DNA of 64,000 nt from an uncultured Anaerolinea sp. (GTDB lineage Bacteria; Chloroflexota; Anaerolineae; Anaerolineales; Villigracilaceae), in assembly GCA_964388215.1 (NCBI GenBank), contig CAYLZI010000001.1:6980-70979 (forward strand). Reading direction: 5' to 3'. A program made the translations under genes and the position numbers. Shown here piece after piece: positions 12,042 to 50,881 of this stretch. A model generated the notes under the pieces. The model was given only the letters and a program-made list of their open reading frames with translations. It was not told the DNA's origin and ran no database searches. How positions within the stretch are numbered: position 1 is the stretch's first letter; each line of letters begins with the position of its first letter.

Positions 12042-12057
12042 TATTCACCTCCTGGCT

Positions 12058-13664: not shown

Positions 13665-13676
13665 AGCAACTCCCTG

Positions 13677-20246: not shown

Positions 20247-20257
20247 GGAAGACCTTT

Positions 20258-20899: not shown

Positions 20900-20913
20900 A
20901 TCTGTTTCCCTGT

Positions 20914-26937: not shown

Positions 26938-26948
26938 GCGTGGTCTCC

Positions 26949-29382: not shown

Positions 29383-30375
29383 TTACAGTCGTCCGCCCAT
29401 CGTCAGGGCCATCAGCGCCTTCTGGATGTGCATGCGGTTTTCGGCTTCGTCATAAATGACCGATTGCGGGCCATCCACCACCGCATCGGTGGCTTCGTAG
29501 CCGCGGTCAATCGGCATACAGTGCATGTAGATGGCTTCCTTCTTGGCCAGACCCATCATGCGCTCATCGCAAATCCAGTCTTTGTGCTGGTCGCACATGG
29601 CCTGCACTTCTTTCGGCTCTTCAGTGACCATGATGGGTCCCCAAGATTTAGCGTAGACGATGTCGGCGTCTTCGGCCCCGGTGTCCATATCATCTACAAT
29701 TTCAAATTTGGTGCCGTTTTCGGCGGCGTGTTTCTGGGCCAATTCCAGGCACTTGGGCATCATCTCGAATCCTTTGGGGTGCGAGAGGGTGACATCCATG
29801 CCAAAGCGGGTCATCAGCATAATAAGAGCCTGCGGCACCGAGAGCGGGCGGACGTACTTCGGCGCGTAAGTCCACGAGATGACAAATTTGCGCCCGCGCA
29901 GGTTGTCCCCAAACTTCTCGCGGATGGTCATCAGGTCGGCCATCGCCTGGCAGGGGTGGTCCACATCGTCCTGCATCGAGATGACCGGAATGTTCATGTA
30001 TTTTGCCAGTTCGTACTGATAGGCCTGCCCAATGCCGGTGCGGCAATCACGCAGCGCCAGTCCGTGACCGTAGCGTTCGAGCACCATGCCGGTATCTTTG
30101 GGGCTTTCGCCATGCCCAACCTGGGTGGCGGCGGGGGTCAGGTAAATGGCGTGGCCGCCGAGTTGGGCCATGCCGGCCTCGAAACTGTTGCGGGTGCGGG
30201 TCGATTCTTCGAAAAAGAGCATATAAAGAATGCGGCTGCGCAGGATGTGGTCGTGCTGTTCGCCAAAGGCAAAGCGGCGCTTGAGTTCATCGGCGGCGTC
30301 GAGCATGGCGGTCAGTTCGTCCACGCTCCAATCTTCAGTGGTGATAAAGTCTTTTCCGAACAGGGTGGTTTTCAT
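29383..30375 (-). CDS. YgeW-like carbamoyltransferase (ATCase/OTCase superfamily)
   Basis: STRTR and HPCQ motifs. LSVPQALIMLMTRFGMDVTLSHP, DADIVYAKSW, QHKDWICDE and YMHCMP closely track E. coli YgeW as I recall it. Confidence 0.8.
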   Translation of the reverse strand: MKTTLFGKDFITTEDWSVDELTAMLDAADELKRRFAFGEQHDHILRSRILYMLFFEESTRTRNSFEAGMAQLGGHAIYLTPAATQVGHGESPKDTGMVLERYGHGLALRDCRTGIGQAYQYELAKYMNIPVISMQDDVDHPCQAMADLMTIREKFGDNLRGRKFVISWTYAPKYVRPLSVPQALIMLMTRFGMDVTLSHPKGFEMMPKCLELAQKHAAENGTKFEIVDDMDTGAEDADIVYAKSWGPIMVTEEPKEVQAMCDQHKDWICDERMMGLAKKEAIYMHCMPIDRGYEATDAVVDGPQSVIYDEAENRMHIQKALMALTMGGRL

Positions 30376-30427
30376 TTTCGTTTCTCCTTAAATTATTTTT
30401 GACTCTACCGCAAAAACCAATTAACCA

Positions 30428-30497
30428 TGAAGGTCACGAAGGAACGCAAAGGAAATGCTCTTCACCTTTAACCTTCGTGTACTTTGCGCCCTTTGTG
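30428..30497. repeat. Intergenic palindromic segment (CACGAAGG / CCTTCGTG, CGCAAAG / CTTTGCG)
   Basis: Inverted 7-8-mers at 30435-30442/30472-30479 and 30445-30451/30482-30488 allow alternative hairpins between two co-directional genes. Confidence 0.5.
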
Positions 30498-30517
30498 TTT
30501 AAAGGTTTGCAGCGGAT

Positions 30518-31729
30518 TCATTTTTGATTTGCGTACATGAACGGGAACAGCGCATAAAACATGGCAGCCCGCTTCACTTTTTCGAGATTGACCTGGTCTT
30601 CCTGGGTGTGGACGTATTTCTCTTGCTGCGGCCCAAAGCCCAGGGTGGGGATTCCGGCGGCCCCGGCGGAATACGTTCCATCGGTGCTGAACTTCCAGAC
30701 AGCGACTTCAGCGGGCTTTTTCCACAAGGCTTGATAGGTGGCCTGTCCCGCTGCCAGCAGCGGGCTGTTTTCATCCAGCAGCCAGCCGGGGAAAAAGGCC
30801 TGGTCGTCGAGATTGAGTCCGGTATGGGCGCGGACGGCTTGAAACGGGATTTCGACCGTTGCTCCGAGCGGTTCGACCACCCGGAGAAGTGATTCCGTGA
30901 CCGAGGCGGGCGTCTCGCCCGGAACCAGCCGCCGGTCGAGGGCGATTTCGCACCAGCCCGGCACCGAGTTGGGGGTATGCGGCCCCAAAATCAGCGTGAC
31001 AACCTGATTCCCTTGCCCGAAGGTGGGGTCAACCGGCAGGCTGGCGTTCATCTTTTCGACTGCTTCGATGACGGGCAGCATTTTCAGGATTGCATTTTCG
31101 CCCAGGTTGGGCGTGGAGGCGTGGGCCGCCTTGCCTTTGGCGCGCACACGCACTTCGCAGCGCCCGCGATGACCGCGCCGCAGGGTCAGGTCGGTGGCTT
31201 CGGCCAGCAACACGGCGTCGGGGCGCAATCCGTCGCGCTCGACCAGTGAGCGCAGGGCAAAACCCTCGGCGTCTTCTTCGAGGGTCGCGCCCATCACCAC
31301 CACCGAACAGCCGGGGTCAATTCCCAACTGCTTGAGAATCGCCGCGCCGTAGACGATGGCCGCCACGCCCGCTTTGCAGTCGGAAGCGCCCAGACCGTAG
31401 AGCGTGCCGTCCACGATGACCGCGTCAAGGGGTGGGTAGGGCCATTCCTTTTCATCGGCGATTTCGTTGGTGTCGAGGTGGGCGTTGTAGAGCAGGACGG
31501 GTTTGCCTGCGCCGATTTGACCGAGGGCATTCCCGGCAGAGTCCATCCAGACCTTGTCACAGCCGATGGCGCGTAACTCGGCCAGGGTGCGCTCGACGGC
31601 CGGGCCTTCCTCGCCGGTGTAGGTGCGGATACGCACGATGTCCGCGAGAAATTTCACCATGTCCGGGAACAGGGTTTCGGCGGTTTGTTCAATTTGCTGG
31701 GCGAGTTTTTCCAAATCGTAATTTTGCAT
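30518..31729 (-). CDS. YgeY-like M20 family peptidase/deacylase
   Basis: Start trimmed to ATG 31729 (GGAG upstream), giving 403 aa. Motifs NAHLDT, GASDCKAG, LEEDAEG and WKFSTDGTYSAGAAGIPTLGFGP resemble E. coli YgeY as recalled. Confidence 0.8.
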   Translation of the reverse strand: MQNYDLEKLAQQIEQTAETLFPDMVKFLADIVRIRTYTGEEGPAVERTLAELRAIGCDKVWMDSAGNALGQIGAGKPVLLYNAHLDTNEIADEKEWPYPPLDAVIVDGTLYGLGASDCKAGVAAIVYGAAILKQLGIDPGCSVVVMGATLEEDAEGFALRSLVERDGLRPDAVLLAEATDLTLRRGHRGRCEVRVRAKGKAAHASTPNLGENAILKMLPVIEAVEKMNASLPVDPTFGQGNQVVTLILGPHTPNSVPGWCEIALDRRLVPGETPASVTESLLRVVEPLGATVEIPFQAVRAHTGLNLDDQAFFPGWLLDENSPLLAAGQATYQALWKKPAEVAVWKFSTDGTYSAGAAGIPTLGFGPQQEKYVHTQEDQVNLEKVKRAAMFYALFPFMYANQK

Positions 31730-31795
31730 ATTGCTCCGTACTGCAGCATTCATGCCGCAAACACCAGGCGACATAAATGTCGCGCTACAAGCCCG

Positions 31796-32821
31796 TTAGG
31801 CAACCCGGTATTTCAACGGTTGACCTGTGAGAACGGCAAGCAGGTTGTCGTAATCCATATTGCGCCTGAATTCCGCTCCGGTTGCCGCCTCGGCCCCCGC
31901 AGCGGTGTGCGGGGTGAGCAGCAGGTTGACTTGCGGATTTCGAGCGAGACTCACCAGCGGGTCATCGGGACGAATAGGTTCCCAGTTGAAAGTATCGAGC
32001 GCCGCGCCGCCCAGTTGACCGGAGCGCAGGGCTGAGGCAACCGCTTCTGCATCCGCCGTCGTCCCGCCTCCGGCGTGTACCAGCAGCAGGCCGGGCTTGC
32101 AGACGGCAAAGAATTTGGCGTCCAATAGGCGATGGGTTTCGGGGAAGTCCGGCAGCAGGTTGAGCAGGATGTCTGCATGTTGCTGGATGTCTGCGATGCT
32201 GGCGTATTCGATTTCGAGTTCAGCCTCCGCATGGGCTGAAATGCGCTGGCGTTTGTTGTAAATCACCTGGCAGTCGAAGGCGCGCAGGCGGCGGGCCAGT
32301 TCAATCCCGATTTCGCCGAATCCCAAAATGCCGACCGTTTTGCCAAAGATTCCGCCGATGTTGTCGCGGCGCGACCAGTTGTAGGCGAAGTAGTCCTCGG
32401 TACATTCCTGGGGCTGGCCCCAATCGGGCGCGGCTTGTTCGGCGATTTGGGTCACTTCACGCAGGCGTTTGACCAGGGCCAGGGCGGCCATCAGCATGTG
32501 TTCGGCCACCAACTGACAGCCGGAGACGGGGTTGGCGCAGGCGGGAATCCCCGCCGCTTTCGCCGCATCCAGGTCAATGTCCCAGGTCTGGCGTCCGAGG
32601 CGTTGAATCAGTTTAAGATTGTGTCCAGCCTCGATGAGTTCCGCATCCAGCGCGCCAACCCGCTCGCTGATGAGAAAATCCACCTGCGGCAGCAGTTCCA
32701 GCATTTCGGCGCGGGAGGGGTTGCGGCGCATGATGATTTTCAATCCCGGCGGGGCGGAGTCAATCGCTGCTTGCTGGTGACGCAATCCGCGCTGGGTGGT
32801 GAACAGGACTGTATATTTCAT
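31796..32821 (-). CDS. D-isomer-specific 2-hydroxyacid dehydrogenase family
   Basis: Start trimmed to ATG 32821 (TAATG overlap with the upstream stop). NAD fold GILGFGEIGIELARRL. Catalytic-region LLTPHTAAG. Confidence 0.85.
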   Translation of the reverse strand: MKYTVLFTTQRGLRHQQAAIDSAPPGLKIIMRRNPSRAEMLELLPQVDFLISERVGALDAELIEAGHNLKLIQRLGRQTWDIDLDAAKAAGIPACANPVSGCQLVAEHMLMAALALVKRLREVTQIAEQAAPDWGQPQECTEDYFAYNWSRRDNIGGIFGKTVGILGFGEIGIELARRLRAFDCQVIYNKRQRISAHAEAELEIEYASIADIQQHADILLNLLPDFPETHRLLDAKFFAVCKPGLLLVHAGGGTTADAEAVASALRSGQLGGAALDTFNWEPIRPDDPLVSLARNPQVNLLLTPHTAAGAEAATGAEFRRNMDYDNLLAVLTGQPLKYRVA

Positions 32822-33843
32822 TACGGCTCCCAATCGGCGAAGGCGTCTACCACCGGTTTGATGTCGTCCATCATCGGGTAGAGAATCGGGCAGGTCACGC
32901 CCGCTTCGATGTATTCCTTCACTTTGGCGCGGCACTCGTCCGAAGTGCCGACCGCCATCAGGTTGCGCACCACGTCATCGGGGATGACCTTGCTGGTGCG
33001 GATGTAGTCTTCCTCGGTGGCGGGCCAGCTCATCATGGATTGTACTTTCGCAAGCAGTTCCTCGCTGACGCCGGAGGCCTTCATGATGTGCGGCTCGGTC
33101 GCCAGGTAGTAAGAGACCAGTTTCTTGCCCTCGGCCATCGCCGCGTCGGGGTCTTTGTCTGATAGACAGCAGACCAGCAGTTCGGGGCGGTCAACGTGGG
33201 CCAGGGTTTTGCCAGATTTTTGAGCGCCTTTTTCAACCAACTCCACCGCCCTGCGAATGTAATCCACCGAGACGACGTAATTTAGCACCACGCCATCGCA
33301 AATTTCGCCGGCCAGTTCGAGCATTTTGTCGCCGGTGGCACCGATGTAGAGCGGAATGTCGCGGGGCGAGGCGTCGCCAAAGGCCACATCCAAACGGATG
33401 CGGTCGAGGTTGACAAATTCGCCCTGATAGGTGACTTCCTCCATCGTGAACAACCGGCGGATGGATTCGATGTGTTCGCGCATGGCCTTGAGCGGTTTCT
33501 CGCGTTTGACGCCCACGCGCCCGGCAATCGGCTCCCACCACGCGCCCAGGCCGAGCATGACGCGCCCGCGCCCGTCCACCTTGCCGCCCAGTTCCCACAT
33601 CGTGCTCCACGAAGCGGCAATCACCGCCGGGTTGCGCGTCCAGATGGGCAGCACGCCGGAGCCAAAGCGCAGGCGTTTGGTGTGGTTTAAGAAGGCGCTC
33701 ATCATCACGATGCAGTCGCGCGCCAGGCGGGTATCGGCCTGCCAGATTTCGCTGAAGCCGCGTTCCTCGGCATAGCGGGCAATTTCCAGTTCGTACTGGA
33801 TGTTGTGCTTGTCTTGCATGTAAAGAGCCATTCGTTGCGCCAT
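32821..33843 (-). CDS. Luciferase-like (LLM class) flavin/F420-dependent oxidoreductase
   Basis: 340 aa. [21 protein letters not shown] and following TIM-barrel blocks are typical of the LLM family. The cofactor cannot be assigned by eye. Confidence 0.75.
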
Positions 33844-33869
33844 ATTCTTTACTCCAGGCTTGTCTCGAA

Positions 33870-35231
33870 TTATGAGAGATAGGATTTCAGGTTGACCATT
33901 GGATATGTGACGCGCTCGCCATACGGGCGGCGCTCTGGCTTATACGTCGCGTCTATGCCCATTTTGTTCTGTACGCCGCGCATATCGGCGGTCGGGTCCA
34001 TTTCGTGGCCCTGCGCGCCGGGGACGAGGAAGGTGTCCTTGCCCCAATCCACGCGATTGGTCAGCGCCCACAGCACATCGGCGGGGTCGTAGATATTCAC
34101 ATCGGGGTCAACTATGATGACTTTGGCAATGTTGACGTGCGCGGTGAAAGCCGCCATGGCCGCGTTCTTGGGTTCGCCGGGGTTGGTCTTTGCCAGTTGG
34201 ACAATTGCCAAAAACCCATTGCCATAGGGCGGAATGTGCAGGGCGGTCACGTTGCGGCTGACGTGGCGCACAAAGCGCAGCAGCAGCGGCTCGCGCGGCA
34301 GGACGTTGCCGATGTAGATATGCTCATCCCAGCCGGGGACGATGGTCTGGTAAATCGGGTTATCGCGGAAGCAGATGGCGGTCACTTCAAACGTGGGCGA
34401 TTCCCACAACTCGCCGTAGTAGCCGTGAAATTCGGCCAGCGGCCCTTCGGCGTGACGGATGTGCGGCGGCAGGCAGCCTTCGATGACAATTTCACTGTAG
34501 AACGGCACGCGCACATCCACGGTCACGCCCTTGCAAGTTTTGACCGGTTCGCCGCGCAGCGCCCCGGCAATTGCCAGTTCGTCATCGTCATAACGCGCCC
34601 CGGCAGCAATCATAATGGCCGGGTCGAGGCCAATGGCAATGGCAATTTGGAGCGACTCATCTTTGGCCTGGTGATGTTTGTAAAACTGCATGACATGCCG
34701 CCACTCGTTGACATTGAACCCAAAGGTATGCGGGCCAAGAATCTGCATTCGGTTGTAAGAAAGGTTGCCGCGCCCTGAAACCGGGTCGGTACAGACCGTC
34801 ACGCCGCCGGTGATGAAGGGGCCGCCATCGTGTTCACCGTGCGTGGGGATGGGCAGTTGGTACAGGTTGATTTGGTCGCCAGTGATGATGTTCTGCTTCC
34901 AGGCGGAAGTCTCGCCCACCAACTGCGGCTGAATCCCGTTACCGATTTCGAGCGACTTGCCCATTTGGTTAGGAACTTCGCCTGTGGCGCATTGCAGTGC
35001 CAGCGCCGCGCTGGACGGGCTGACCACCGCGTTGGCAAAAACCGGCCAGGGGAGTGTATCCGCCGCGCGGGCGGGCTGCTCAAAAACGACAGGCCCTTGT
35101 CCCTGCCTGGCCAGGGTCGCGGCGACGTTGGCGAGTTCGTGTTCCAGGTGAACCGGCTTGCGGATGCGGGTCATCTGGCGGGCTTCTTCCAAAACTTCGA
35201 TGTAACTTCTCAGGTCATAAATACGGTTCAT
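33870..35231 (-). CDS. UbiD family (prFMN-dependent) decarboxylase
   Basis: 453 aa. Family-typical N-terminus [22 protein letters not shown], plus [15 protein letters not shown] and AIAIGLDP blocks. Confidence 0.8.
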
Positions 35232-35295
35232 GGTTGCCTCGCTAAATTGCTAAACTCCAAAGTCTCCCGACTTTGGAACATCAACAAACTCCGCA

Positions 35296-36471
35296 TTATC
35301 GAATCGGATAACCACCCACTTCACGGGCGGTTTCGAGCATGGCGAGGTAATATTCCGGCACTACTCCCAGATGGATGGAATTGCTGGACGAAAGCAGGAA
35401 GCCTCCACCGGGCGCGGCGGCGCGGATGACGCGGGCGGTTTCTTCTTTGACCGCTTCCACCGGCCCATTTACCAGCACAGTCGAGCAATCCACGTTGCCA
35501 ATCAGCGTCAGGCGGTCGCCGTATTGCTTTTTGATGGCGGCGATGTCCATCCCGGCGCGAGGTTCGATGGACTGGAAGGCATCCACACCCGAATCAATCA
35601 TCCCTTCGAGCAGGCTGTTGACGTTGCCGTCGGTGTGTTTGACGTACACTCCGCCGTAGCGGTGACACAAGTCAGTAATTTGTTTGAGGCGCGGGAAGAC
35701 GAATTTGCGAAAATGGCGCGGCGAAAAGATGGGCGCGCGCGAAGCCGCCCAATCGTAACCGCCGTGCAGGCCGTCCACGCCGCGCTGGAGCAGGGCTTCG
35801 CCAAGCATGAGGGTGGTTTTTAACTGGACATCCAGGTAGCGTTCGATTAAATTTGGGGCTTGCACCAGGCCGATGAGGAAGGTCTCCGCCCAATCGTAGG
35901 TGGAACCGATATGCACATCCGCCGAACCGAGAATCATGCGCTCGTTTCCAAACTCGGTAAGGACGCGGTCAACGATGGAAAAATCCCAATCTTCGAGGCG
36001 TGGCTCGCTGGCTTCCATGATGGAGGTCACGCGCTCCAGCTCTTCCAGCCCGCCGCGCTTCAAACTGGAATCAATCTGGTCGTAGGTGTCGCTATCGGGG
36101 GCGTAACGGCATAGGCCCCAAACGCCGTTAGAATCCTCGAATCGCCAGGTGACTTCGTCCACCTGTTCGGGAACCAGCGGGTTGGCCGGGAAGGGGTCAC
36201 AGTCAACGAGGGGGAAAACATCCAGGTCGAGCGTCCGCCAAAGTTCGATGTCGTCAGTAGCGAGCTGTTCTCGATATTGCTTGAATTGGCCTGCCATCAG
36301 CGCCTGGTTTTGTTTGACGCCCCGCGAAAGCCCGCCGAAGCCACACAGGGTTTCGCGCCCCAACACATGAGCAGCGGTAGGGTTATCAATCGTCAGTTCA
36401 AAAACCGGGACGCGGTCTGCTTCCTGGTGGGCAAATGCCAGTTTGGCGCGTTCTTTGCCGAAGGCGTTCAT
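35296..36471 (-). CDS. Uroporphyrinogen decarboxylase (URO-D) fold family protein
   Basis: 391 aa. The C-terminal half (VYVKHTDGNV...GVDAFQSIEP...LIGNVDCSTVL...GGGFLLSSSNSI) matches the URO-D/MtaA-type layout. Confidence 0.7.
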   Translation of the reverse strand: MNAFGKERAKLAFAHQEADRVPVFELTIDNPTAAHVLGRETLCGFGGLSRGVKQNQALMAGQFKQYREQLATDDIELWRTLDLDVFPLVDCDPFPANPLVPEQVDEVTWRFEDSNGVWGLCRYAPDSDTYDQIDSSLKRGGLEELERVTSIMEASEPRLEDWDFSIVDRVLTEFGNERMILGSADVHIGSTYDWAETFLIGLVQAPNLIERYLDVQLKTTLMLGEALLQRGVDGLHGGYDWAASRAPIFSPRHFRKFVFPRLKQITDLCHRYGGVYVKHTDGNVNSLLEGMIDSGVDAFQSIEPRAGMDIAAIKKQYGDRLTLIGNVDCSTVLVNGPVEAVKEETARVIRAAAPGGGFLLSSSNSIHLGVVPEYYLAMLETAREVGGYPIR

Positions 36472-41690: not shown

Positions 41691-41711
41691 TGTGGCTTCC
41701 TTTCTTTCAAA

Positions 41712-42443: not shown

Positions 42444-42513
42444 AATTTCTCTCCTGTTAGAGTCCAACGACTCCTGGCGTTGGTCAAAAGCCAGAGACTT
42501 TTGACTCCCTGAA

Positions 42514-43251: not shown

Positions 43252-43351
43252 GGGCTCCTCTTTTCTGAATGGAGTCGAAAGTCTCCAAACGTTCGCGCAA
43301 AATCGGGAGATTCTTGCGCCCGTCTGGGTATTGCACTCCAGCCCAAACTAC

Positions 43352-44686
43352 TTATAACGCCAGCGCAAACGGGCGTTCAATGAGTTGCTTCACGCGCTGG
43401 AGGAATTTCGCGGCGGGCGCGCCGTCTACCAAACGGTGGTCGAAGGACAGGCTGAGCGCCATCATCTCACGCAGGATAATTTGCCCGTTCAAGCCGACCG
43501 GTTTCGAGGCAATCCGACCAACGCCCAGGATGGCGCATTCGGGCGGGTTGATGAGCGGGGTGAAGGCGTCAATTTCGTACGCGCCCAAGTTGGTGATGGT
43601 GAAGGTTCCGCCGCTCAATTCGTCGGGCAGGCTGCGGCTTTGGGTGGCGCGCTCGGCCAGGCTGTTGATTTCCTGATTAATCTGGCGCAGACTTTTAGCG
43701 GGGACCTCGCGCACGACCGGCACGAGCAACCCGCGCGGGGTATCCACCGCCAGGCCCAGGTTGATGCCCGGCATGGTTTGCAGGCCGGTTTCGGTCAGTT
43801 GGGCGTTGAGATTGGGATGTTCAGCCAGGGCGAGGGCGACGAGGCGCATGAGCAGGGCGTTGTAGGAAATTTTCTCGTTTTGAGCGGCCATCTCAGCGTT
43901 GAGTTGCTGGCGGGCGGCCACCAGGTTGGTGGCGTCGGCTTCGGTGGTCAGGGTCACTTGCGGTCGTTCGCGCCAACTCTGCGAAAGGCGCTCGGCGATA
44001 ATGCCGCGCAGTCCGCTCAGGGGAAACGGGGCGGATGGGGCGGGCTTGCCGACGAGTGCTTTTTCGACATCCCCGCGCATGATGCGTCCACCCGCGCCGC
44101 TGCCGGGCACGGAGGCCAAATCCAGCCCGGCTTGTTCGGCGGCGCGCTGGGCGACAGGCGAGGCTTTGACTGTGGGTTTTGTCTCGACGTTGCTCGACAA
44201 CCGTGCTGCAGCGCGTTGGACATCCTCCGTCACAATCATGCCGCGAATCCCGCTGCCACTGATTTCTTCTAATGAGATGTTCAACTTCCGCGCCAGAGTC
44301 CGCGCTTTGGGGCTGGCGGGCGAGGTGTCAGGTGATGAGGTGTCAGGCTTGCCCTGAGACTGGTCGAAGGGTGTCAGGGAGGGAATGTCGGATGTTGGAT
44401 TTTCACCGCTGACGGCGTGATGTCCGCTGACGGTTCCGCCGCTTAACGTTCCCACCGGGGAAAGCACCGGCACAGTCACATCCACCGGGGTCGAAATTTT
44501 CAAATAGCCATTGGCAGGCGCTTCGATTTCGACGGTGGACTTTTCATTTTCGATGATGAAAAGCGTCTCGCCTTTGTTGGCCCACTCGCCATCGGCTTTG
44601 ACCCATTCGATGATTTTGCCTTCGGTCATGGTCAGGCCCAGGCGGGGCATGACCACTTGATAGACTGCTGTATCTTTTTCTGCCAT
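43352..44686 (-). CDS. 2-oxoacid dehydrogenase E2 (dihydrolipoamide acyltransferase) with one lipoyl and two subunit-binding domains
   Basis: Lipoyl domain IIENEKSTVEIEAP. PSBD 1 is SPKARTLARKLNISLEEISGSGIRGMI. PSBD 2 is SPVAQRAAEQAGLDLASVPGSGAGGRI. Catalytic SFDHRLVDGA. Confidence 0.9.
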   Translation of the reverse strand: MAEKDTAVYQVVMPRLGLTMTEGKIIEWVKADGEWANKGETLFIIENEKSTVEIEAPANGYLKISTPVDVTVPVLSPVGTLSGGTVSGHHAVSGENPTSDIPSLTPFDQSQGKPDTSSPDTSPASPKARTLARKLNISLEEISGSGIRGMIVTEDVQRAAARLSSNVETKPTVKASPVAQRAAEQAGLDLASVPGSGAGGRIMRGDVEKALVGKPAPSAPFPLSGLRGIIAERLSQSWRERPQVTLTTEADATNLVAARQQLNAEMAAQNEKISYNALLMRLVALALAEHPNLNAQLTETGLQTMPGINLGLAVDTPRGLLVPVVREVPAKSLRQINQEINSLAERATQSRSLPDELSGGTFTITNLGAYEIDAFTPLINPPECAILGVGRIASKPVGLNGQIILREMMALSLSFDHRLVDGAPAAKFLQRVKQLIERPFALAL

Positions 44687-44689
44687 GGT

Positions 44690-45532
44690 TTACTCCGGGT
44701 GGACACCTGGAACCACAGGGTGGACACTTGGGTCCACCCCGACGAATATTTGTTTGACGCGCTCGAAGGCGGCGGTTTCGTTGTCAGAGGGGCTGAATTC
44801 CATGCCAATCAGGCCGTCGAAACCCAGTTGGCGCAGTTTGCGGGCCAGGTTGGGGAAGTTGATTTCGCCGGTGCCTGGTTCCTGGCGGGTAGGCGAATCG
44901 CCGATGTGGAAGGTGGGATACAGACCCCAGTAGGCTTCCATGCCGTACATCAGGTTGCCGGCGGTGCGCTGTTGGTGATAACAATCGAAAGATAGCCGCA
45001 ACTGGGGATGGTTAAATCGCCGCACCCAATCCGCCGCCAGGTCATGGTCATGCACCAGTACGCCGCCCTGGATGTGGAACTCGTTGAGGGCCTCGACCCA
45101 CACCTCGACCTTCGTCTGTTCGACCAGTTTCATAATTTTCTCGGTCTGGTTGAGCAGGTTGGCGTATTGCTCGGCCTCGGTCACGTTACGCGACAGGCGG
45201 CGGGTCCACTCTTTGCCGTCCACGATGTCAATTTGATTGGAAAAGATGAAAAGGTGTTCCACGCTGTAGCGTTCAGCCATTTCGAGGCTTTCGGCCCACG
45301 AGCGCAGGGTCTTTTCGTTATCTGCCGGGTCGGCCAGCGAACCCATGTCCTCGTCGAAGGTCGAGTTGATGATTCCGCCCAGGCGCTTGCATTCCGCAGA
45401 AAGTTCGGCAATGGGCGCGCTGCGCCAGCACCAGACATCGTAACGTTTGACGCCCAAATCCATGAAGGGAGCGACGCGCTCGACCATCGGGCGGTCTTTG
45501 AACCAGAAATCAAGGTAGCCGGTGAATTCCAT
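44690..45532 (-). CDS. Xylose isomerase-like TIM-barrel protein (hydroxypyruvate isomerase/sugar-phosphate epimerase family)
   Basis: 280 aa. The family layout (MEFTGYLDFWF..., NEFHIQG, HIGDSP, EINF) sits between the E1 beta and E2 genes. Confidence 0.75.
   Translation of the reverse strand: MEFTGYLDFWFKDRPMVERVAPFMDLGVKRYDVWCWRSAPIAELSAECKRLGGIINSTFDEDMGSLADPADNEKTLRSWAESLEMAERYSVEHLFIFSNQIDIVDGKEWTRRLSRNVTEAEQYANLLNQTEKIMKLVEQTKVEVWVEALNEFHIQGGVLVHDHDLAADWVRRFNHPQLRLSFDCYHQQRTAGNLMYGMEAYWGLYPTFHIGDSPTRQEPGTGEINFPNLARKLRQLGFDGLIGMEFSPSDNETAAFERVKQIFVGVDPSVHPVVPGVHPE
44697..44739. repeat. Direct repeat GGGTGGACAC(C/T)TGG x2 plus hairpin GGGTGGAC/GTCCACCC just upstream of the E2 start
   Basis: Repeats at 44697-44710 and 44718-44731; inverted arm at 44732-44739. 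Encodes the C-terminal tail VHPVVPGVHPE of the upstream gene. Confidence 0.7.
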
Positions 45533-45585
45533 GTATATCTCATCCTTTCGGGCAGATACATAGGTCTGCCCCTACGGGCCCGCCG

Positions 45586-46566
45586 TTATTTGTTCCAAAA
45601 ACTGCGCGCAGCCCTGACGACATCCTCCACGCCCGGCAGAACGTTTTGCTCCAGTTCGGGGCTGTAGGGCAAGGGGACGTTTTTCGCGCCAACGCGCAGG
45701 ATGGGGCCGTCGAGATATTCGATGGCGCGTTCAGCCAGTACTGCGGCGATTTCCGCACCCGGCCCAGAGCGGACGTGCGCTTCGTGGGCAATGACCACCC
45801 GTCCGGTTTTTGCGACCGAGTCAATCAGGCCTTGGGCGTCGAGCGGGACGAGAGTGCGTGGGTCAATCACCTCGGCGTCAATTCCCTCGGCTGCCAATTT
45901 TTCGGCGGCTTGCAGGGCTTTCTGTACCATAATGCCGATTCCAATGATGGTCACGTCTTTGCCGGAGCGCAGGATGTTGGCTTTGCCAAACGGCACGCTG
46001 AAATCGGGGTCGGTGGGGACATCGCCTTTCAAACCATAGAGCATTTTGTGTTCAAAGAACAGCACCGGGTCTTGCCCGCGCAGGGCGGTTTTGAGCAGGC
46101 CTTTGGCATCGGCAGCGGTGGCGGGGACAACAATTTTCAGTCCCGGCACGTTCATAAACCACGATTCAGGGCTTTGCGAGTGCTGGGCGGCAGCGGAACC
46201 GGGCGAGCCGCTGGTAACTCGGATGGTGAGCGGCACATTGGCCTTGCCACCGCTCATAAAGCGCGCTTTGGCTACCTGGTTGACAATCTGGTCTCCCGCG
46301 CACATCAGGAAGTCGCCGAACATGATTTCAGCAATCGGGCGCATCCCGCTCATTGCGGCTCCCAGCGCGCTGCCGATGATGGCAATTTCAGAAATAGCGG
46401 TGTCGCGCACTCGCTCTGGCCCAAACTCTTCCAACATGCCGTTGGAGACGCCCCACACCCCGTTAAATATGCCCACATCTTCGCCCATCAGGAAGACGTT
46501 CGGAACGCTGCGCATTTCTTCGCACATCGCTTCGCGGATTGCTTCGGAAAAAGTAATTTCACGCAT
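45586..46566 (-). CDS. 2-oxoacid dehydrogenase E1 beta subunit
   Basis: 326 aa. EAIREAMCEEMRSVPNVFLMGEDVG, VRDTAISE and the transketolase-like C-terminal domain. Confidence 0.9.
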   Translation of the reverse strand: MREITFSEAIREAMCEEMRSVPNVFLMGEDVGIFNGVWGVSNGMLEEFGPERVRDTAISEIAIIGSALGAAMSGMRPIAEIMFGDFLMCAGDQIVNQVAKARFMSGGKANVPLTIRVTSGSPGSAAAQHSQSPESWFMNVPGLKIVVPATAADAKGLLKTALRGQDPVLFFEHKMLYGLKGDVPTDPDFSVPFGKANILRSGKDVTIIGIGIMVQKALQAAEKLAAEGIDAEVIDPRTLVPLDAQGLIDSVAKTGRVVIAHEAHVRSGPGAEIAAVLAERAIEYLDGPILRVGAKNVPLPYSPELEQNVLPGVEDVVRAARSFWNK

Positions 46567-46578
46567 TGTTTTCCTCGC

Positions 46579-47601
46579 TTAAAAAACCAGTCCATCGTGG
46601 GTGTCGGCATAGACACCCGCTAAGGCGTCTTCGGGCGCGAGACGGGGGGCAGCGGCGGCAAAGGCCACCGCTTCATTGAGCGCGGCAAAGACCTGGCCCT
46701 GAATTTCCTCCAGATGGCCGTCATCCAAAACACCGGCTTTAAGCACCTGGGCGCGGAAGGCGGCAATCGCATCGCGGGCTTTCCAGGATTCGATTTCCTC
46801 GACGCTGCGATAAACCTGGGGGTCGCCCTCGTAGTGTCCGCGCCAGCGGTAGGTTTTGGCCTCGATGAAGGTCGGCCCCTGCCCGGAACGGGCGCGCTCG
46901 GCGGCGGCGCGGACGGCTTCATAAACCGCCAGCACATCGTTGCCGTCCACAATCACGCCGGGCATGCCGTAACCAGCAGCGCGGACGGCCAAATCGGTGA
47001 CCGGTGTGCAGCGATGCATGGCCGTGCCTTCGCCGTACAGGTTATTTTCACAGAAAAAGATGACCGGCAGTTTCCAAACCCCGGCCTGGTTGGCCGCTTC
47101 GTGGAAGGCGCCTTCGTTGGTGGCGCCATCGCCGAAGAAAGCCAGGGCGAGGTGGGGCTGTTTTCGCATGGAAAAAGCCAAAGCCGCGCCCACCGCAATC
47201 GGGATACCGCCGCCGACGATTCCGTTCGCTCCCAAGATGCCGAGGTCGAAATCGGCCATGTGCAGCGAACCGCCGCGTCCCAGGCAGTAACCAGGCGAAC
47301 GGGCGGCCAGTTCGGCCATCATGTATTTCGGGTCGCCGCCTTTGGCAACCAGGTGGCCGTGTCCGCGATGCGTGCTGGTAATCACATCGTCTTTGGTGAG
47401 TGCCAGGCACGCGCCCACAGCGGTGGCTTCCTGCCCAACGCAGGAGTGGATGAAGCCGGGAATCAGGCCGCCGTGCCGTTCCTCAATGGCGCGCAGTTCA
47501 AACTCGCGCGCCATGTTCATGCGCCGGAACATCTCGGCCAGCAATTCCACGGGGTATCTCGTCCCCATGCTTTTTTGGGGGTGGGTAAGGGGATTGTCCA
47601 T
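46579..47601 (-). CDS. 2-oxoacid dehydrogenase E1 alpha subunit (TPP-binding)
   Basis: Start trimmed to ATG 47601 (AAGGAG upstream). TPP motif GDGATNEG...NN, plus YRWRGH. Confidence 0.9.
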   Translation of the reverse strand: MDNPLTHPQKSMGTRYPVELLAEMFRRMNMAREFELRAIEERHGGLIPGFIHSCVGQEATAVGACLALTKDDVITSTHRGHGHLVAKGGDPKYMMAELAARSPGYCLGRGGSLHMADFDLGILGANGIVGGGIPIAVGAALAFSMRKQPHLALAFFGDGATNEGAFHEAANQAGVWKLPVIFFCENNLYGEGTAMHRCTPVTDLAVRAAGYGMPGVIVDGNDVLAVYEAVRAAAERARSGQGPTFIEAKTYRWRGHYEGDPQVYRSVEEIESWKARDAIAAFRAQVLKAGVLDDGHLEEIQGQVFAALNEAVAFAAAAPRLAPEDALAGVYADTHDGLVF

Positions 47602-47645
47602 GTTGCTCCTTGATTCGGGCGGATACACAATCCGTCCCTGCTTGG

Positions 47646-48989
47646 TTAGGCCGCCCACAGCCGTTTGGCGGCGGCGCGCGCGTTTGCTTTGAGTTCAGTC
47701 CAGTCTACATTCAACACCTGTCCATCACGCATGAGCGTTTTGCCCGCCACAACGGTGGCCTTTACATCGGAGGCGTGACAGTAGAGCAGGAGTTGGTCGT
47801 ACAGGTTATGCTCTTCGAGCGGGGTGGGTAAATCGGGGACGATGAGCTGGAAATCGGCCTGCCAGCCGGGTTCCAGCCGCCCAACCCCTTCCAGGCTGAT
47901 GGCTTTTGCGCCGCCCTCGGTCGCCATATACCAGACTTCGTGAGCGGGCATGACCTGCGGGTTGAGATGAGCGGCCTTGTGAATTAAGAATGCTCCGCGC
48001 ATGACCTCGAAGAAATCGTGGATGTAGCCGTCGCTGCCCAGCCCGACGGTAATACCGGCCTGCAACAGTTGCGGCACAGGGGCAATCCCGCCGCCGACTT
48101 CGCAGTTCGAGAGCGGCATGTGGGTAGCGCTGACCCCTCGCGCGGCCATCAACTCAATTTCATCGGGCGAGAGTTGCACGCATTGCGAGGCCAACATCCC
48201 ACTCCGCTGCGCTTCGGGGACTTTGCCCGGCCCCAGTACGCCCAGGCTGTCATAATAGAACATCGGGCGCATTCCAAATTTCTCGAGGCAGTATTTCGGC
48301 TCATAGACGCCCTCCGAAACATGGGCATGAGTCAGCGCGCCACGTTTCAAAGCCATCTCGAATGCCTGGCGGATGAAATCGGCATTGCAGGTGAAGGTGG
48401 TGTGGAAACACATCATCCCGGTCAGCAGCGAACCGACTGGACGCGAATCGATAAATTCAGCGTTTTCGCGCAGGCCGAGTTGGGCATTTGCTTCCGAAAC
48501 GCGCTGGGTGGCCTCGAAGGACAGGATTCCGCGCAGGCCGCGTTTTTCGAGCAGATTGGCCTGGGCCTTCAAGATTCCCGGCAGGGCGTTGGGGGCTTCC
48601 TGGCAGTCGTAAAAGGAGGTGATTCCGCTCTGTACCATGCGCGCGGTCTGAATGTCGGTGGCAGCGCAAATCATCTCGATATCGAGGCGGTTTTCGATGC
48701 GAGGCCACCAGAATTCTTCAAGGAAGTCCCAAAAGCCGATGGGGACTGATTGCATGGGAATCCCATGCGCCAGGACTCCATACAGGTGGGTGTGGGCGTC
48801 CACGAAACCGGGGGCCAGCACCCGTCCGGGCGCGTCCCAGACTTCATCGTCGGGGTAGTGCTGGCGCAGGTCGGCGTGGGGGGCCACGTCGCTGACGCGG
48901 TCAGATTCAACGCGAATCCCCCAGCCCTTGCGCGGGGACTCACGGGGGGAGGTGATTACCCACTCGGGCAGGACAATTAAATTTGGCAT
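47646..48989 (-). CDS. SsnA-like amidohydrolase
   Basis: Start trimmed to ATG 48989. Motifs GFVDAHTHLY, FWWPRIENRLD...SGITSFYDCQEAP...LRGILSFEATQR and GSDGYIHD track E. coli SsnA as recalled. Contains a 9-codon family 2 insertion. Confidence 0.8.
   Translation of the reverse strand: MPNLIVLPEWVITSPRESPRKGWGIRVESDRVSDVAPHADLRQHYPDDEVWDAPGRVLAPGFVDAHTHLYGVLAHGIPMQSVPIGFWDFLEEFWWPRIENRLDIEMICAATDIQTARMVQSGITSFYDCQEAPNALPGILKAQANLLEKRGLRGILSFEATQRVSEANAQLGLRENAEFIDSRPVGSLLTGMMCFHTTFTCNADFIRQAFEMALKRGALTHAHVSEGVYEPKYCLEKFGMRPMFYYDSLGVLGPGKVPEAQRSGMLASQCVQLSPDEIELMAARGVSATHMPLSNCEVGGGIAPVPQLLQAGITVGLGSDGYIHDFFEVMRGAFLIHKAAHLNPQVMPAHEVWYMATEGGAKAISLEGVGRLEPGWQADFQLIVPDLPTPLEEHNLYDQLLLYCHASDVKATVVAGKTLMRDGQVLNVDWTELKANARAAAKRLWAA
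48198..48228. repeat. Family 2 element, single copy, in frame inside the SsnA-like gene
   Basis: CCCACTCCGCTGCGCTTCGGGGACTTTGCCC versus CCCGCTCCGCTGCGCTACGGGGACTTTCCCG in the AOR gene, 28 of 31 identical. Translated KVPEAQRSG. Confidence 0.8.
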
Positions 48990-50133
48990 GAAAATTGCCT
49001 CGCTTCTTGATACTTGCGTCCAAATTTGCAAAAGGAGTGCGCGGGGCCAGGTTGTTGCCCTCGCGCAGGACAAAACGCCCGCCCTCGCAGATACCTGAGT
49101 TCAGGATGCGCCGGGTTTCCTCGCGGACGGCATCGGGGGTTCCGTTGAGCAGCAGCATGATGTTCGGGCCGCCGTGAATCAGCACTTCCGGACCAAGTTC
49201 CTGCCTGAGTTTTCCGAAGTCAACCGGGAAGCCGGTTTCGAATTCCCGGGCGTTGATTTCATCGCGCAGGGTTTTGAAGTGGCGGGTCGCGTCGCCGCAT
49301 AAGTGAACTTTGACGCGGCTTGGAGAACCGAGCCCAACGATGAGCTTGCGATAAACCGGGACGAGGAATTCCCGCAGCATTTTAGTCGAAATCAACTGAA
49401 TAGAATCGTCGGCAAAGAATAGTTCCTGCCCGGAGGCCGACAAACCGAAAAACTGCATGTGGGCGCGGATGCGCTGGATGGTGCCTTCGGTGATGTAATC
49501 GAGCAGGTCGCGGGCGTATTGCGGGTCTTCGTACAGGTCGGTCAGGAAATCGCCGCCGCGCAGGGCAATCGCCAGCGTAAACGGGCCAGAAGTCCAGATG
49601 CCGAAGGGCGCCATGCGGATGGGGCTTCCATGATAGGTTGGATTCCGATGGATGCGCTCGCTCATCTCGTCGAAGATTTGATGGGCTTTGGCATACCAGC
49701 CGCCTTTGAGCGGGTCGGGCAGTCCCAAATCTTTGAAAGCATTTTTGTGTTCACCGTCGAAAATAGGTTTGGTATCTGGAACCTGGTTGGGGAGAAATAC
49801 CACCGGAGCGCCGAAATAGGCAGCTTCGTCGTAGTTCTGCAAATCAACCTTGGCGAGGAACTCATCCGGCAACCCGATGGGGTCGTCGCAATAGGGGGCA
49901 ATCTTCTCGACGCGCCAGGCCTGGCTGCGCAACTGGAAACCGAGCATGGTCGCGGCCTCGGTCGAGTAAGACTCAAAAGTGACCGCTTCGCCAGGGTTCA
50001 GGTCGTCGTTGAAGATGAAGAACTGGGTCGCTGTACCTAACTGTACCGGCGGGCGTATCGGCTGCCCAGCACGGAAGGCTTCCAAAATGGCTCTGGATTC
50101 TTCATTGTGCTTTGCGTTCTCTGCAATGTACAT
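48940..50133 (-). CDS. URO-D fold family protein (paralogue)
   Basis: Start trimmed to ATG 50133, because the longer ORF overlaps the regulator gene. Motifs VKVHLCGDATRHF, LIHGGPNIMLL and GGRFVLREGNNL. Its 3' end overlaps the next gene by 50 nt. Confidence 0.7.
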   Translation of the reverse strand: MYIAENAKHNEESRAILEAFRAGQPIRPPVQLGTATQFFIFNDDLNPGEAVTFESYSTEAATMLGFQLRSQAWRVEKIAPYCDDPIGLPDEFLAKVDLQNYDEAAYFGAPVVFLPNQVPDTKPIFDGEHKNAFKDLGLPDPLKGGWYAKAHQIFDEMSERIHRNPTYHGSPIRMAPFGIWTSGPFTLAIALRGGDFLTDLYEDPQYARDLLDYITEGTIQRIRAHMQFFGLSASGQELFFADDSIQLISTKMLREFLVPVYRKLIVGLGSPSRVKVHLCGDATRHFKTLRDEINAREFETGFPVDFGKLRQELGPEVLIHGGPNIMLLLNGTPDAVREETRRILNSGICEGGRFVLREGNNLAPRTPFANLDASIKKRGNFHAKFNCPARVGNHLPP

Positions 50134-50158
50134 AGTCCTGTGAATACCTTTTGATGGT

Positions 50159-50710
50159 TTAGAACACCGGCGGGGTGATAACTGAAATCCAGCGCGTGCC
50201 GCACTCACAAGCGCAGCGGATTTCGAGCAGTTGAGCGCCGTTAAAGTAGACAGAGTCGCCCGCTTCAAGGGTATATCGCCCGTCATCCAAGCCGACAATG
50301 AGCGAGCCTTCCAAGACAAAAATCATTTCTTCGGTTTCGACACTCAGGCGGCGGGCGATGTTCTCGCTGTTGTATTTGATATGCCCAATGATGGATTCAA
50401 ATTTACCAGTCAGGTCAGGAGTCAGCAGTTCGTAAGAGACACGTTCGTCATCCAGGTCTATCATTGGGCGGTTATCGGCGCGCACAACGGGCAATTCGGA
50501 GTGGGGTTCAGTGAGAAAATACATCATGGGAACGTTGAGCGCGTCTGAAATTTTTTGCAGCGAAGCAAGCGAAGCGTTGGTGACGCCGCGTTCAAGCTGG
50601 CTAAGAAAAGAGGCCGTCAAGTCAGTTTTTTCGGCCAGCTCGCGCAATGAAAGCCCCAGAATAGCGCGCCGACGGTTAAGCCGCTTTCCAATGACAAGCA
50701 TATCAGTCAT
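50159..50710 (-). CDS. XRE-family HTH regulator with C-terminal cupin domain
   Basis: HTH LSLRELAEKTDLTASFLSQLERG. Cupin IFVLEGSLIVGLDDGRYTLEAGDSVYF. First gene of the co-directional island. Confidence 0.85.
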   Translation of the reverse strand: MTDMLVIGKRLNRRRAILGLSLRELAEKTDLTASFLSQLERGVTNASLASLQKISDALNVPMMYFLTEPHSELPVVRADNRPMIDLDDERVSYELLTPDLTGKFESIIGHIKYNSENIARRLSVETEEMIFVLEGSLIVGLDDGRYTLEAGDSVYFNGAQLLEIRCACECGTRWISVITPPVF

Positions 50711-50881
50711 AAATTCCTCCTTGCTTTACGTTTGTAAAGTATAACTTTACTTTTGTATTATATCAAGATTGAAATTAAATTCAATAGCCTACGGCATCGT
50801 GGGCAGGGCTTTCTCAAGAAAGCAAGCTTCTTCATCCCACCTGCCCCTCTACCCTGGCATCATGGTAAACTACAGGAAGAA

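Follow-up and report, generated by a model that had tools for sequence, protein, structure and literature searches.

Two routes by which bacteria break down fused N-heterocycles were worked out in 2025, that of anaerobic purine breakdown in gut Proteobacteria and Firmicutes only and that of pterin breakdown in aerobic soil Proteobacteria only. Anaerolineae are among the most abundant uncultured bacteria of sediments, digesters and microbial mats and are thought to live on cell debris. A stretch of 64,000 nucleotides from an uncultured Anaerolinea sp. (GenBank assembly GCA_964388215.1, contig CAYLZI010000001.1, positions 6,980 to 70,979), referred to here as the window, carries a run of 18 intact open reading frames (ORFs) on the minus strand from position 50710 down to position 29383. 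The gene run was compared with both systems. We incline, with rather modest confidence, to the reading that it is a composite catabolic island for the anaerobic breakdown of a purine-type, possibly pteridine, fused-pyrimidine N-heterocycle; the substrate class is deduced from the gene content, and the core of the island is interpreted by its correspondence with the reductive urate pathway.

The biochemistry of the latter is known from the ygeW-xdhD region of E. coli. Urate is first reduced by XdhD to 2,8-dioxopurine, which is dearomatised by YgfK or, in C. difficile, by UacX. After opening of the ring by SsnA and of the hydantoin by HyuA, the two ureido groups are taken off by YgeW (or UacY) and YgeY, and YgeX turns diaminopropionate into pyruvate (PMC12507026). 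An independent preprint arrives at the same pathway (bioRxiv 10.1101/2025.04.24.650524). The E. coli and clostridial clusters comprise xdhD-ygfM, ygfK (UacX), ssnA, hyuA, ygeW (UacY), yqeA, ygeY and ygeX (PMC12507026; bioRxiv 10.1101/2025.04.24.650524). According to a bioinformatic remark of one paragraph, SsnA clusters of Chloroflexota are without YgfK/UacX and carry instead an 'F420-dependent' enzyme of family PF00296, which was proposed as an alternative reductase (PMC12507026). Since this link between SsnA and an F420-type LLM enzyme in Chloroflexota is already published, the core of the island is regarded as a variant of a known pathway (PMC12507026).

The island shares with the reductive urate cluster a molybdenum (Mo) hydroxylase, an SsnA-type amidohydrolase, a YgeW-like carbamoyltransferase and a YgeY-type M20 hydrolase, and a HyuA-type enzyme occurs in related loci. 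However, its proteins are only 28-36% identical to the E. coli pathway proteins. The Mo enzyme is of another clade than XdhD, differs from it in the active site and is without a FAD subunit; an LLM oxidoreductase stands in the place of YgfK/UacX; YgeX, carbamate kinase and YgfM are lacking, as is HyuA in the window. About ten further conserved genes of the island are unreported for the urate pathway; they encode a UbiD-family decarboxylase, three proteins of the URO-D fold, two short-chain dehydrogenases/reductases (SDRs), the E1 and E2 components of a 2-oxoacid-dehydrogenase-like complex, a Hyi-like TIM barrel, a D-isomer 2-hydroxyacid dehydrogenase (2-HADH) and an aldehyde:ferredoxin oxidoreductase (AFOR).

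In the route proposed for the core, the Mo enzyme would adjust the oxidation pattern of the purine or related heterocycle, and the LLM enzyme would dearomatise the ring with a hydride, probably from F420H2, in place of YgfK/UacX. The rings would be opened by the SsnA-like enzyme and, where present, by a second cyclic amidohydrolase or hydantoinase. The carbamoyltransferase, working by phosphorolysis to carbamoyl phosphate, and the M20 hydrolase would then take off two ureido groups. The Hyi-like isomerase and 2-HADH may handle the C3 product without YgeX. An island of this kind with about 20 conserved genes would give Anaerolineae a defined role in nucleobase and cofactor recycling. The opening of heterocyclic rings would thereby be linked with an F420-type reductase and Mer/Mch-like enzymes, and UbiD, URO-D-fold and tungsten enzymes would be added to this chemistry. 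The island would also offer candidate genes for orphan activities, namely an F420-dependent purine reductase, a new clade of Mo hydroxylases and URO-D-fold enzymes that are not methyltransferases.

All genes named in a first-pass annotation, which had been made from the letters of the window alone, were found intact on the minus strand, and Pfam and NCBIfam agreed with every domain type named there. That annotation counted 19 genes, whereas 18 were found, and its own list also names 18. Start codons were refined, and three over-long ORF starts were corrected. The minus-strand run was indeed uninterrupted between positions 50710 and 29383, but it does not end at 29383 and goes on to position 18834. 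Of the many overlaps of 1-8 nt that had been described, clear ones were found at four junctions (Mo enzyme and the following 380-amino-acid protein, 4 nt; this protein and the TRZ/ATZ-type amidohydrolase, 8 nt; the latter and the second URO-D-fold protein, 4 nt; LLM enzyme and 2-HADH, 1 nt), while the remaining junctions are gaps of 3-142 nt. Coordinates below are window positions, and the genes lie on the minus strand unless stated otherwise.

The Mo enzyme (38889-41690) is a fusion of two [2Fe-2S] domains with molybdenum cofactor (Moco) domains and has no FAD domain, as judged by Pfam. Its best relative of known structure is the D. gigas aldehyde oxidoreductase MOP (1vlb/1sij; 397 bits), which likewise consists of a single chain with two [2Fe-2S] and Moco domains and no FAD domain. 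Both proteins have Arg501, Leu626 and the catalytic Glu in common. Unlike MOP, the Mo enzyme has Asp at the position of MOP Phe425 and Phe at that of MOP Tyr535, and thereby, like the xanthine oxidoreductases (XOR), combines an acidic residue with Arg; its gene context, again unlike that of MOP, is heterocycle catabolism. The active-site equivalents D423, R501, F535, L630 and E899 were invariant in 5 orthologues. At the five substrate-site positions of XOR the signature is thus D/R/F/L/E, compared with Q/N/Y/I/E in E. coli XdhD and Q/A/Y/T/E in XdhA, and it resembles canonical XOR at four of the five positions (D for E802, R880, F914 and E1261). In canonical xanthine oxidoreductases the acidic residue, the Arg and the catalytic Glu hold the oxo-purine or oxo-pteridine, and the Mo enzyme may hold such a ring likewise through its acidic residue, Arg and Glu. 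On sequence, the enzyme is assigned to a clade of its own with MOP architecture.

The LLM oxidoreductase (32821-33843) resembles Mer. Its ten best NCBIfam matches were all F420-class LLM families, and all 6 PDB matches were Mer, the methylene-tetrahydromethanopterin (H4MPT) reductase; the protein is therefore read as probably F420-dependent. No other protein of the cluster is conserved so well (82-96% identity among the loci compared). The equivalents of ygeX, hyuA, yqeA and ygfK had been noted as missing. In the 64-kb window this was confirmed, as tblastn with E. coli queries gave no homologue of YgeX, HyuA, YqeA, YgfK or YgfM at E<=1e-6; however, the equivalent of ygfK is probably the LLM gene (PMC12507026), and hyuA-type genes are present in sister loci. 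No gene was assigned to YgeX, the carbamate kinase YqeA, YgfK or YgfM in any sister-locus map.

The SsnA-like amidohydrolase (47646-48989) belongs to the cog0402 group and has SsnA as its best, sub-cutoff NCBIfam match. More than 2800 homologues were found, the top ones in metagenome-assembled genomes (MAGs) of Chloroflexota, and the gene is linked to those of the Mo and LLM enzymes in every type of cluster. It is a candidate for the ring-opening hydrolase. The Hyi-like, or 2-oxo-tetronate-isomerase-like, TIM barrel (44690-45532; AP_endonuc_2) shares 67% identity with the AP_endonuc_2 protein encoded in the compact clusters described below. The run is headed by a regulator gene (50159-50710) with the Pfam domains HTH_3 and Cupin_2; the product has PuuR-like architecture and reached 65 bits with the NCBIfam PuuR model, which is below the cutoff. 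Orthologues with 40-72% identity head the cluster in seven sister loci (L002, L011, L013, L019, L034, L042 and L043, where L-numbers are the labels of the compared sister loci). Directly upstream of the regulator gene, at 50738-50784, there are two overlapping sigma-70-like promoter matches. Both scored 10/12, one of them with an extended-10 TG, and they were the best in the interval of 37-52 kb; they are consensus matches only.

For the last two of the 18 genes, the comparisons favour the names YgeY-like and YgeW-like that they had been given. The M20 hydrolase (30518-31774) passed the cutoffs of the YgeY models NF009555 (367 vs 321) and TIGR03526 (343 vs 321.5). The short carbamoyltransferase (29383-30375) was ranked by BLAST as nearest to YgeW (217 bits), followed by ArgI (135 bits) and PyrB (77 bits). 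Its length falls short of that of YgeW by about 65 residues. The motif DxxxSMG, which goes with ornithine, is missing, whilst KSW.P and QHKDW.C of YgeW are present, so that argF, one of the assignments that would have refuted the first reading, is not favoured.

The closest relatives of the cluster proteins were found in Anaerolineales and other Chloroflexota MAGs, and the arrangement was found again in about 20 distinct Chloroflexota loci. These had been gathered by look-ups of homologues of the 380-amino-acid protein and the SsnA-like protein and by a metagenome scan with the Mo-enzyme alignment; a scan of genome contigs with the Mo enzyme gave two loci only, one of them unrelated (29% identity). 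Counts refer to 21 distinct loci of at least 9 kb and are lower bounds because the contigs are cut. The clade of the Mo enzyme (55-83% identity) was present in 20 of the 21 loci, the LLM gene in 16 and the SsnA-like gene in 10. TRZ/ATZ-type genes, adjoining those of the Mo enzyme and UbiD, were found in 12/21 loci, UbiD and YgeY in 12 each and the carbamoyltransferase in 11, and the partner families occur in several gene orders. The genes are thus co-conserved, which was the check that the first-pass annotation had proposed for its own reading.

The most similar locus, L002 from an Anaerolineales MAG, has the same order from the regulator to AFOR with 66-96% protein identity, and only the first URO-D-fold gene is missing. 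The identical order also occurs at lower identity in L004/L026, L006/L007 and L042. The identities with L002 form a mosaic: they amount to 90-96% for the LLM enzyme, carbamoyltransferase, YgeY, UbiD, the second URO-D-fold protein, the Hyi-like protein and E1, and to 66-77% for the Mo enzyme, the 380-amino-acid protein, the first SDR, E2, the SsnA-like and TRZ/ATZ-type amidohydrolases and the regulator. The pattern speaks for faster divergence of the enzymes that face the substrate, or for their exchange.

L006 and L007 contain the complete block from the SDRs to AFOR and the GH31 gene without YgeY and the carbamoyltransferase. These two are therefore an accessory pair, and the island is not built around YgeW and YgeY as had been supposed. 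Among compact clusters, L043 has only a divergent LLM gene, the regulator, a hydantoinase, the SsnA-like gene and a split Mo enzyme. In L013/L034 the regulator gene comes with those of an HcnABC-like dehydrogenase, an AP_endonuc_2 protein, an aldolase resembling DeoC, a kinase of the FGGY type and a homologue of methenyl-H4MPT cyclohydrolase (Mch), and these are followed by the SsnA-like gene, a split Mo enzyme, LLM, carbamoyltransferase and YgeY. A core of regulator, Mo enzyme, LLM enzyme, SsnA-like protein and Hyi-like TIM barrel is thus shared by the cluster types, usually with the carbamoyltransferase and YgeY and often with a hydantoinase. The HyuA-type hydantoinase was found in L011, L013, L019, L042 and L043; it passed TIGR02033 (503 vs 393) and is 38% identical to E. 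coli HyuA.

Sister loci also carry genes of purine or nucleoside type, namely 5'-nucleotidases, a Bmp/PnrA-type nucleoside-binding protein, a QueT transporter and the DeoC-like aldolase, and in several a CUT1-type ABC transporter lies directly before the SsnA-like gene. Glycosidases of families GH1, GH13 and GH31 flank or enter the operon; In L006, L007 and L021 the GH31 gene comes after AFOR, and in L011 it is located within the operon. The Mch homologue passed its family cutoff (258 vs 229 bits) and lies directly upstream of the SsnA-like gene in L013 (8938-9915), L034, L040 and L019. The compact clusters that bear it also carry the Mer-like LLM gene; possibly, both homologues were recruited for chemistry on the imidazole ring of purines.

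The genes outside the core are read as a funnel, and this part is more weakly inferred than the core. A side chain (diol/polyol or glycosyl) would be converted to an aldehyde and then to a carboxylate, which would be lost by decarboxylation, in addition to a deamination, and substituted heterocycles such as pterins/lumazines and modified purines would in this way be brought into the core. The SDRs would oxidise a diol/polyol side chain, and its cleavage by the acetoin-dehydrogenase-like E1/E2 enzyme would give an acyl-CoA together with a heteroaryl aldehyde. The aldehyde would be turned into the carboxylate by AFOR or, in L029, by an aldehyde dehydrogenase, UbiD would remove the carboxylate, and a cog0402 enzyme would deaminate the ring.

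The domain sets of E1 alpha (46579-47658, TPP-dependent; PF00676, 286 bits), E1 beta (45586-46566; Transket_pyr and Transketolase_C; NF006667 passed with 374 vs 321) and E2 (43352-44686; lipoyl, E3-binding and catalytic domains of a lipoyl acyltransferase) are the same as in acetoin/pyruvate-dehydrogenase-type complexes. In the island the gene of the Hyi-like TIM barrel separates E1 beta from E2, and most sister loci have a third, classical SDR (TGGGRGIG) between the E1 beta and Hyi-like genes. No E3 gene was found in the run, and the nearby Pyr_redox_2 protein has no dimerisation domain; an E3 gene may lie in another part of the genome. E1 alpha shares 55-57% identity with E1 alpha proteins of Rhizobiales plasmids. 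In the one Rhizobiales locus examined (L049, A. tumefaciens pAtCFBP7129b), E1 alpha/beta, E2, LpdA and LipA stand beside a sugar ABC transporter, a PfkB kinase and an oxidoreductase. Unlike such E1-E2-E3 sets, the island has no LpdA or LipA. The sugar-catabolic 2-oxoacid-dehydrogenase-like complex of the Rhizobiales plasmids appears to be uncharacterised. It had been proposed for the window that E1/E2 oxidise a 2-oxo acid derived from the opened ring. This role is unsupported because the nearest relatives of the clade among plasmid records sit in sugar loci.

The same sugar loci, which are plain and have no heterocycle genes, speak for a different view of the whole run: two or three separate pathways might merely be adjacent, perhaps co-regulated, with no common substrate. 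One would act on purines in the manner of the reductive urate pathway, one would be a carbohydrate or keto-polyol unit (E1/E2, the Hyi-like protein, the third SDR, 2-HADH, AFOR, GH13/GH31 and the ABC transporter), and one would decarboxylate heteroaromatic acids. In line with this, homologues of the 380-amino-acid protein with about 47% identity occur in unrelated sugar loci, the compact clusters L013 and L043 do without E1/E2, UbiD and AFOR, and YgeY and the carbamoyltransferase come and go between loci. The modules are, however, interleaved in the window, with the SsnA-like gene before E1 and the LLM gene between UbiD and 2-HADH (31796-32821; family match). The Hyi-like gene lies inside the E1/E2 block and is nevertheless a member of the core (67% identity), and there is translational coupling across the genes of the Mo enzyme, the 380-amino-acid protein, the TRZ/ATZ-type enzyme and the second URO-D-fold protein. 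Moreover, the rearranged loci L011, L019 and L029/30 hold the same families on different strands, and L011 and L029/30 still unite E1, UbiD, LLM, the Mo enzyme and TRZ; since rearranged loci keep the same partners, the linkage is taken to be functional. Adjacency of unrelated pathways is therefore considered unlikely, though it has to be taken seriously.

The tungsten-type AFOR (26949-28955; AFOR_N and AFOR_C) lies after the last of the 18 genes and is preceded by a small conserved ORF (about 28885-29187), which is 66% identical to an 89-amino-acid ORF of L004. AFOR also follows the cluster in L002, L004, L006, L007, L021 and L036, and the small ORF is found before it in L002, L004, L006, L007, L020, L021 and L026. 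L029 has an NAD-type aldehyde dehydrogenase, and its sequenced stretch shows no AFOR; this speaks for an aldehyde as an intermediate. As the small ORF and AFOR are present in nearly every locus that is long enough and L029 has the aldehyde dehydrogenase, an aldehyde-oxidising step belongs to the conserved set. The small ORF is possibly a beta-grasp/ThiS-like protein; its ThiS matches were sub-threshold.

The UbiD-family decarboxylase (33870-35231; prFMN type) passed TIGR00148 with 293 vs 245. Its best PDB matches were 6h6v/6h6x (258 bits), which we take to be the furan-dicarboxylate decarboxylase HmfF. Its best plasmid matches were the UbiD genes of Cupriavidus hmf-type clusters, and two further plasmid contexts were those of ubiquinone UbiD with UbiT/U/V genes. 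These matches would fit a pathway for nitrogen-free heteroaromatic aldehydes or acids, for instance sugar degradation products of the furfural/HMF type, in which AFOR oxidises the aldehyde, the HmfF-like UbiD decarboxylates, an HmfA-like Mo enzyme hydroxylates the ring and E1/E2 oxidise the 2-oxo acid so formed. The Cupriavidus clusters in question contain UbiX, a GMC oxidase and a Mo enzyme, and sugar-related neighbours are present in the window too. But such a pathway has no role for the two cog0402 amidohydrolases, the carbamoyltransferase, YgeY and the hydantoinases, and no CoA ligase is present. The Mo enzyme is just 28% identical to HmfA, which is less than to lumazine dehydrogenase (LuDH) or XdhA, and the nucleoside and nucleotide context of the sister loci also argues against furanic substrates. 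We regard this pathway as very unlikely. A purine- or pterin-type N-heterocycle, as originally proposed, is still the best reading, and it also remains true that the substrate cannot be named from sequence alone.

The second system for comparison is cluster I of Cupriavidus sp. LA-1, in which a pterin deaminase is followed by a lumazine dehydrogenase of the XOR family; an isomerase of the Amidohydro_2 family then makes xanthine-8-carboxylate, and a UbiD/UbiX decarboxylase yields xanthine (PMC12391406). The published distribution of clusters of this type comprises Proteobacteria and Actinomycetota only (PMC12391406), so that the host of the island, an anaerobe-type member of the Chloroflexota, lies outside it. 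Both clusters contain an XOR-family Mo hydroxylase, a deaminase of the amidohydrolase superfamily and UbiD, that is, three of the four enzyme classes, and in the window these are contiguous. The xanthine formed by the LA-1 route is a purine and would feed the island core. The parallel holds at class level only. The Amidohydro_2 isomerase, the GTP-binding chaperone and the UbiX of the LA-1 cluster are lacking in the island. The island deaminase belongs to another subgroup and gave no BLAST match to the CDA-like pterin deaminase of L047, the S. meliloti pSymB cluster, which is not LA-1's own deaminase. Among the references compared, the S. meliloti LuDH orthologue was the best for the Mo subunit (33% identity, 359 bits); the sites differ, and the island enzyme has no FAD subunit. 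BLASTP of the SsnA-like protein, the Mo enzyme, the 380-amino-acid protein, the TRZ/ATZ-type protein, UbiD and both annotated URO-D proteins against the S. meliloti Amidohydro_2 isomerase (DHLI) and GTP-binding proteins gave no match.

UbiD had also been considered as an orthologue of the xanthine-8-carboxylate decarboxylase (XCDC). Its identity with the S. meliloti XCDC orthologue amounts to 34.5% over 316 residues, and that with Cupriavidus HmfF to 36% over 444 residues. This assignment was dropped, as UbiD is no closer to XCDC than to HmfF, and the parallel at class level was kept. The TRZ/ATZ-type cog0402 amidohydrolase (36468-37757) is of the deaminase type, with 5'-deoxyadenosine deaminase as its best NCBIfam match (294 vs 522) and the MTA/SAH deaminase 4f0r as its best PDB match. 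A role as replacement for HyuA, suggested by a distribution that looked complementary, was likewise dropped because its solved relatives are deaminases and L042, which is of the window type, has a HyuA-type enzyme. In relatives of L042 the TRZ/ATZ gene lies downstream; the fetched stretch of L042 itself stops at the gene of the 380-amino-acid protein.

A far-reaching form of the proposed funnel would be a complete and hitherto undescribed anaerobic route from side-chain-bearing or glycosylated pteridines (pigments and cofactors of the biopterin/neopterin type, or ribityl-lumazines) to small molecules. Glycosidases and the ABC transporter would serve in uptake and deglycosylation, and the SDRs, E1/E2, AFOR, UbiD, the cog0402 deaminase and Mo hydroxylation would follow. 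The URO-D-fold proteins would replace the ring-contracting Amidohydro_2 isomerase, and the F420-driven pathway of LLM, SsnA-like enzyme, carbamoyltransferase and YgeY would end the route. We put this forward as a speculation that is more probably wrong than right by a wide measure.

The proteins of the URO-D fold deserve some detail. The first (48940-50133; PF01208, 70 bits) is MtaA-like and has an H-x-C motif ('HLCGD' in the translation). Most sister loci lack it; L026 was the only one in which an orthologue was seen, and L002 is without it. The second (35296-36471; PF01208, 78 bits) has MtaA 4ay7 as its best PDB match (52 bits). The protein of 380 amino acids (37750-38892), which had been left as hypothetical, gave no match to Pfam or NCBIfam, and a PDB profile search with its family was also empty. 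Its AlphaFold2 model (pLDDT 92.9) gave MtaA 4ay8 as the top Foldseek match (E 2.6e-8, TM 0.59/0.64) and URO-D structures as further ones (E 4e-7 to 2e-5), with a probability of 1.00, and hhalign against the alignment of the second URO-D-fold protein gave 88.6% probability. It thus has the URO-D/MtaA fold, and the island encodes three proteins of this fold. The family has more than 1400 members. Its relatives with about 47% identity (L009, L010) are in carbohydrate loci with GFO_IDH_MocA, AP_endonuc_2, GH65, a rhamnosidase and another URO-D protein, which hints at a sugar-related function other than methyl transfer for this unannotated family.

The two SDRs (42514-43251 and 41712-42467) are 40% identical to each other. 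NCBIfam matched the first to PRK09134 and pteridine reductase and the second to pteridine reductase, in all cases below the cutoff. Their motifs, TGGAIRLG and TGAATRVG, both fit TGxxxRxG, which is presumably the signature of FolM/PTR1. Of the FolM/PTR1-like character ascribed to them, this motif held, but the usual YxxxK is absent from both. Where Tyr would be expected, both have His (HGVSK, HAASK), with a Tyr three residues upstream, so that two paralogues share an atypical active site.

Mer and Mch homologues and SDRs with the PTR1 signature normally act on pterin cofactors, and from these one might construe biosynthesis or salvage of a modified pterin, deazapurine or flavin-like cofactor, with the PTR1-like, Mer-like and MtaA-like enzymes and the carbamoyltransferase as tailoring enzymes. 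The H-x-C motif kept in the first URO-D-fold protein, which we take to be typical of Zn alkyl transferases, and the lack of a transporter in the window would agree with this. No GTP cyclohydrolase or other starter gene of pterin or flavin biosynthesis was seen, however, and the PuuR-like XRE-cupin architecture of the regulator is known from catabolic regulators. Ring-opening amidohydrolases, E1/E2, AFOR and glycosidases, and the 5'-nucleotidases and uptake systems of the sister loci, indicate catabolism as well. A cofactor cluster is the least probable of the explanations considered here.

A number of results weigh against the favoured interpretation as a catabolic island for purine-type heterocycles. 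The Mo enzyme, first taken to be XdhD-like, is not: it reached 317 on TIGR03313 against a cutoff of 1102, its identity to XdhD is 28%, lower than that to XdhA, and the site signatures differ as given above. The signature of the S. meliloti LuDH orthologue, Q/V/Y/A/E, also differs from D/R/F/L/E. For the SsnA-like protein, SsnA is the best family as stated earlier, but it reached only 244 bits on NF005540 (cutoff 444) and 239 bits on TIGR03314 (cutoff 455), and the identity to E. coli SsnA is 28%; the proteins of sister loci reached 252-272 bits on the SsnA models. The carbamoyltransferase was below the cutoff of all NCBIfam models (AOTC, 265/288; YgeW models, 224 and 212 vs 453 and 500), and the LLM enzyme below the curated cutoffs of its nearest families, its use of F420 being inferred from family resemblance only. 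The SDRs scored 187 and 207 on the pteridine reductase model PRK09135, whose cutoff is 288. UbiD is slightly nearer to HmfF than to the XCDC orthologue (216 vs 189 bits), no UbiX was found among the annotated ORFs of the window, and no cluster protein matched Amidohydro_2 (DHLI). The window contains neither a HyuA-type enzyme nor a transporter, and the three URO-D-fold proteins get no step in the proposed pathway. Finally, as YgeX and carbamate kinase are absent, the end of the pathway must differ, and the fate of the C3 skeleton is left unaccounted for.

In the literature searched, no description was found of the Mo-enzyme clade with its own site, of the Mch homologue in compact clusters, or of the conserved link to UbiD, three URO-D-fold proteins, TGxxxRxG SDRs, E1/E2, AFOR and glycosidases. 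A search for UbiD, xanthine dehydrogenase and amidohydrolase together in anaerobes likewise gave no paper.

Downstream of the 18 genes the same-strand run continues with the small ORF, AFOR, a GH13 alpha-amylase-family glycosidase (25282-26952), which overlaps AFOR by 4 nt, and a GH31 glycosidase (22786-25266), co-directional with the cluster. After GH31, the interval 18834-22320 encodes a Pyr_redox_2 flavoprotein and a multihaem cytochrome c of 620 amino acids (c7/c3-type repeats with an MtrC-like stretch). These two could form an electron outlet; conservation with the cluster was not seen. The GC content of the region was 0.58-0.62, compared with 0.49-0.61 elsewhere in the window, so that it is not clearly set apart, and an 'island' in the sense of horizontal transfer is not supported by GC content. 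Scans of the window for tRNAs and Rfam families gave no matches, and terminator scans gave fewer matches than in shuffled sequences and were uninformative.

Elsewhere in the window, a type VII/WXG100-like secretion locus (5678-15929) has a GC content of 0.49-0.52, below that of the rest. It encodes an EccC-like FtsK/SpoIIIE ATPase of 1512 amino acids, a Ser/Thr kinase, a WXG100-domain protein and a VWA-FHA protein. Rho and a LysM-M23 peptidase are also encoded in the window. The divergent neighbour of the island on the plus strand (51053-51772) is an alanyl-tRNA editing protein of the AlaXM type (273 bits vs a cutoff of 300), a type typical of archaea. Beyond it, a minus-strand gene (52490-53722) encodes a fusion protein of 410 amino acids with a HAD-type hydrolase domain and a C-terminal DinB_2 domain.

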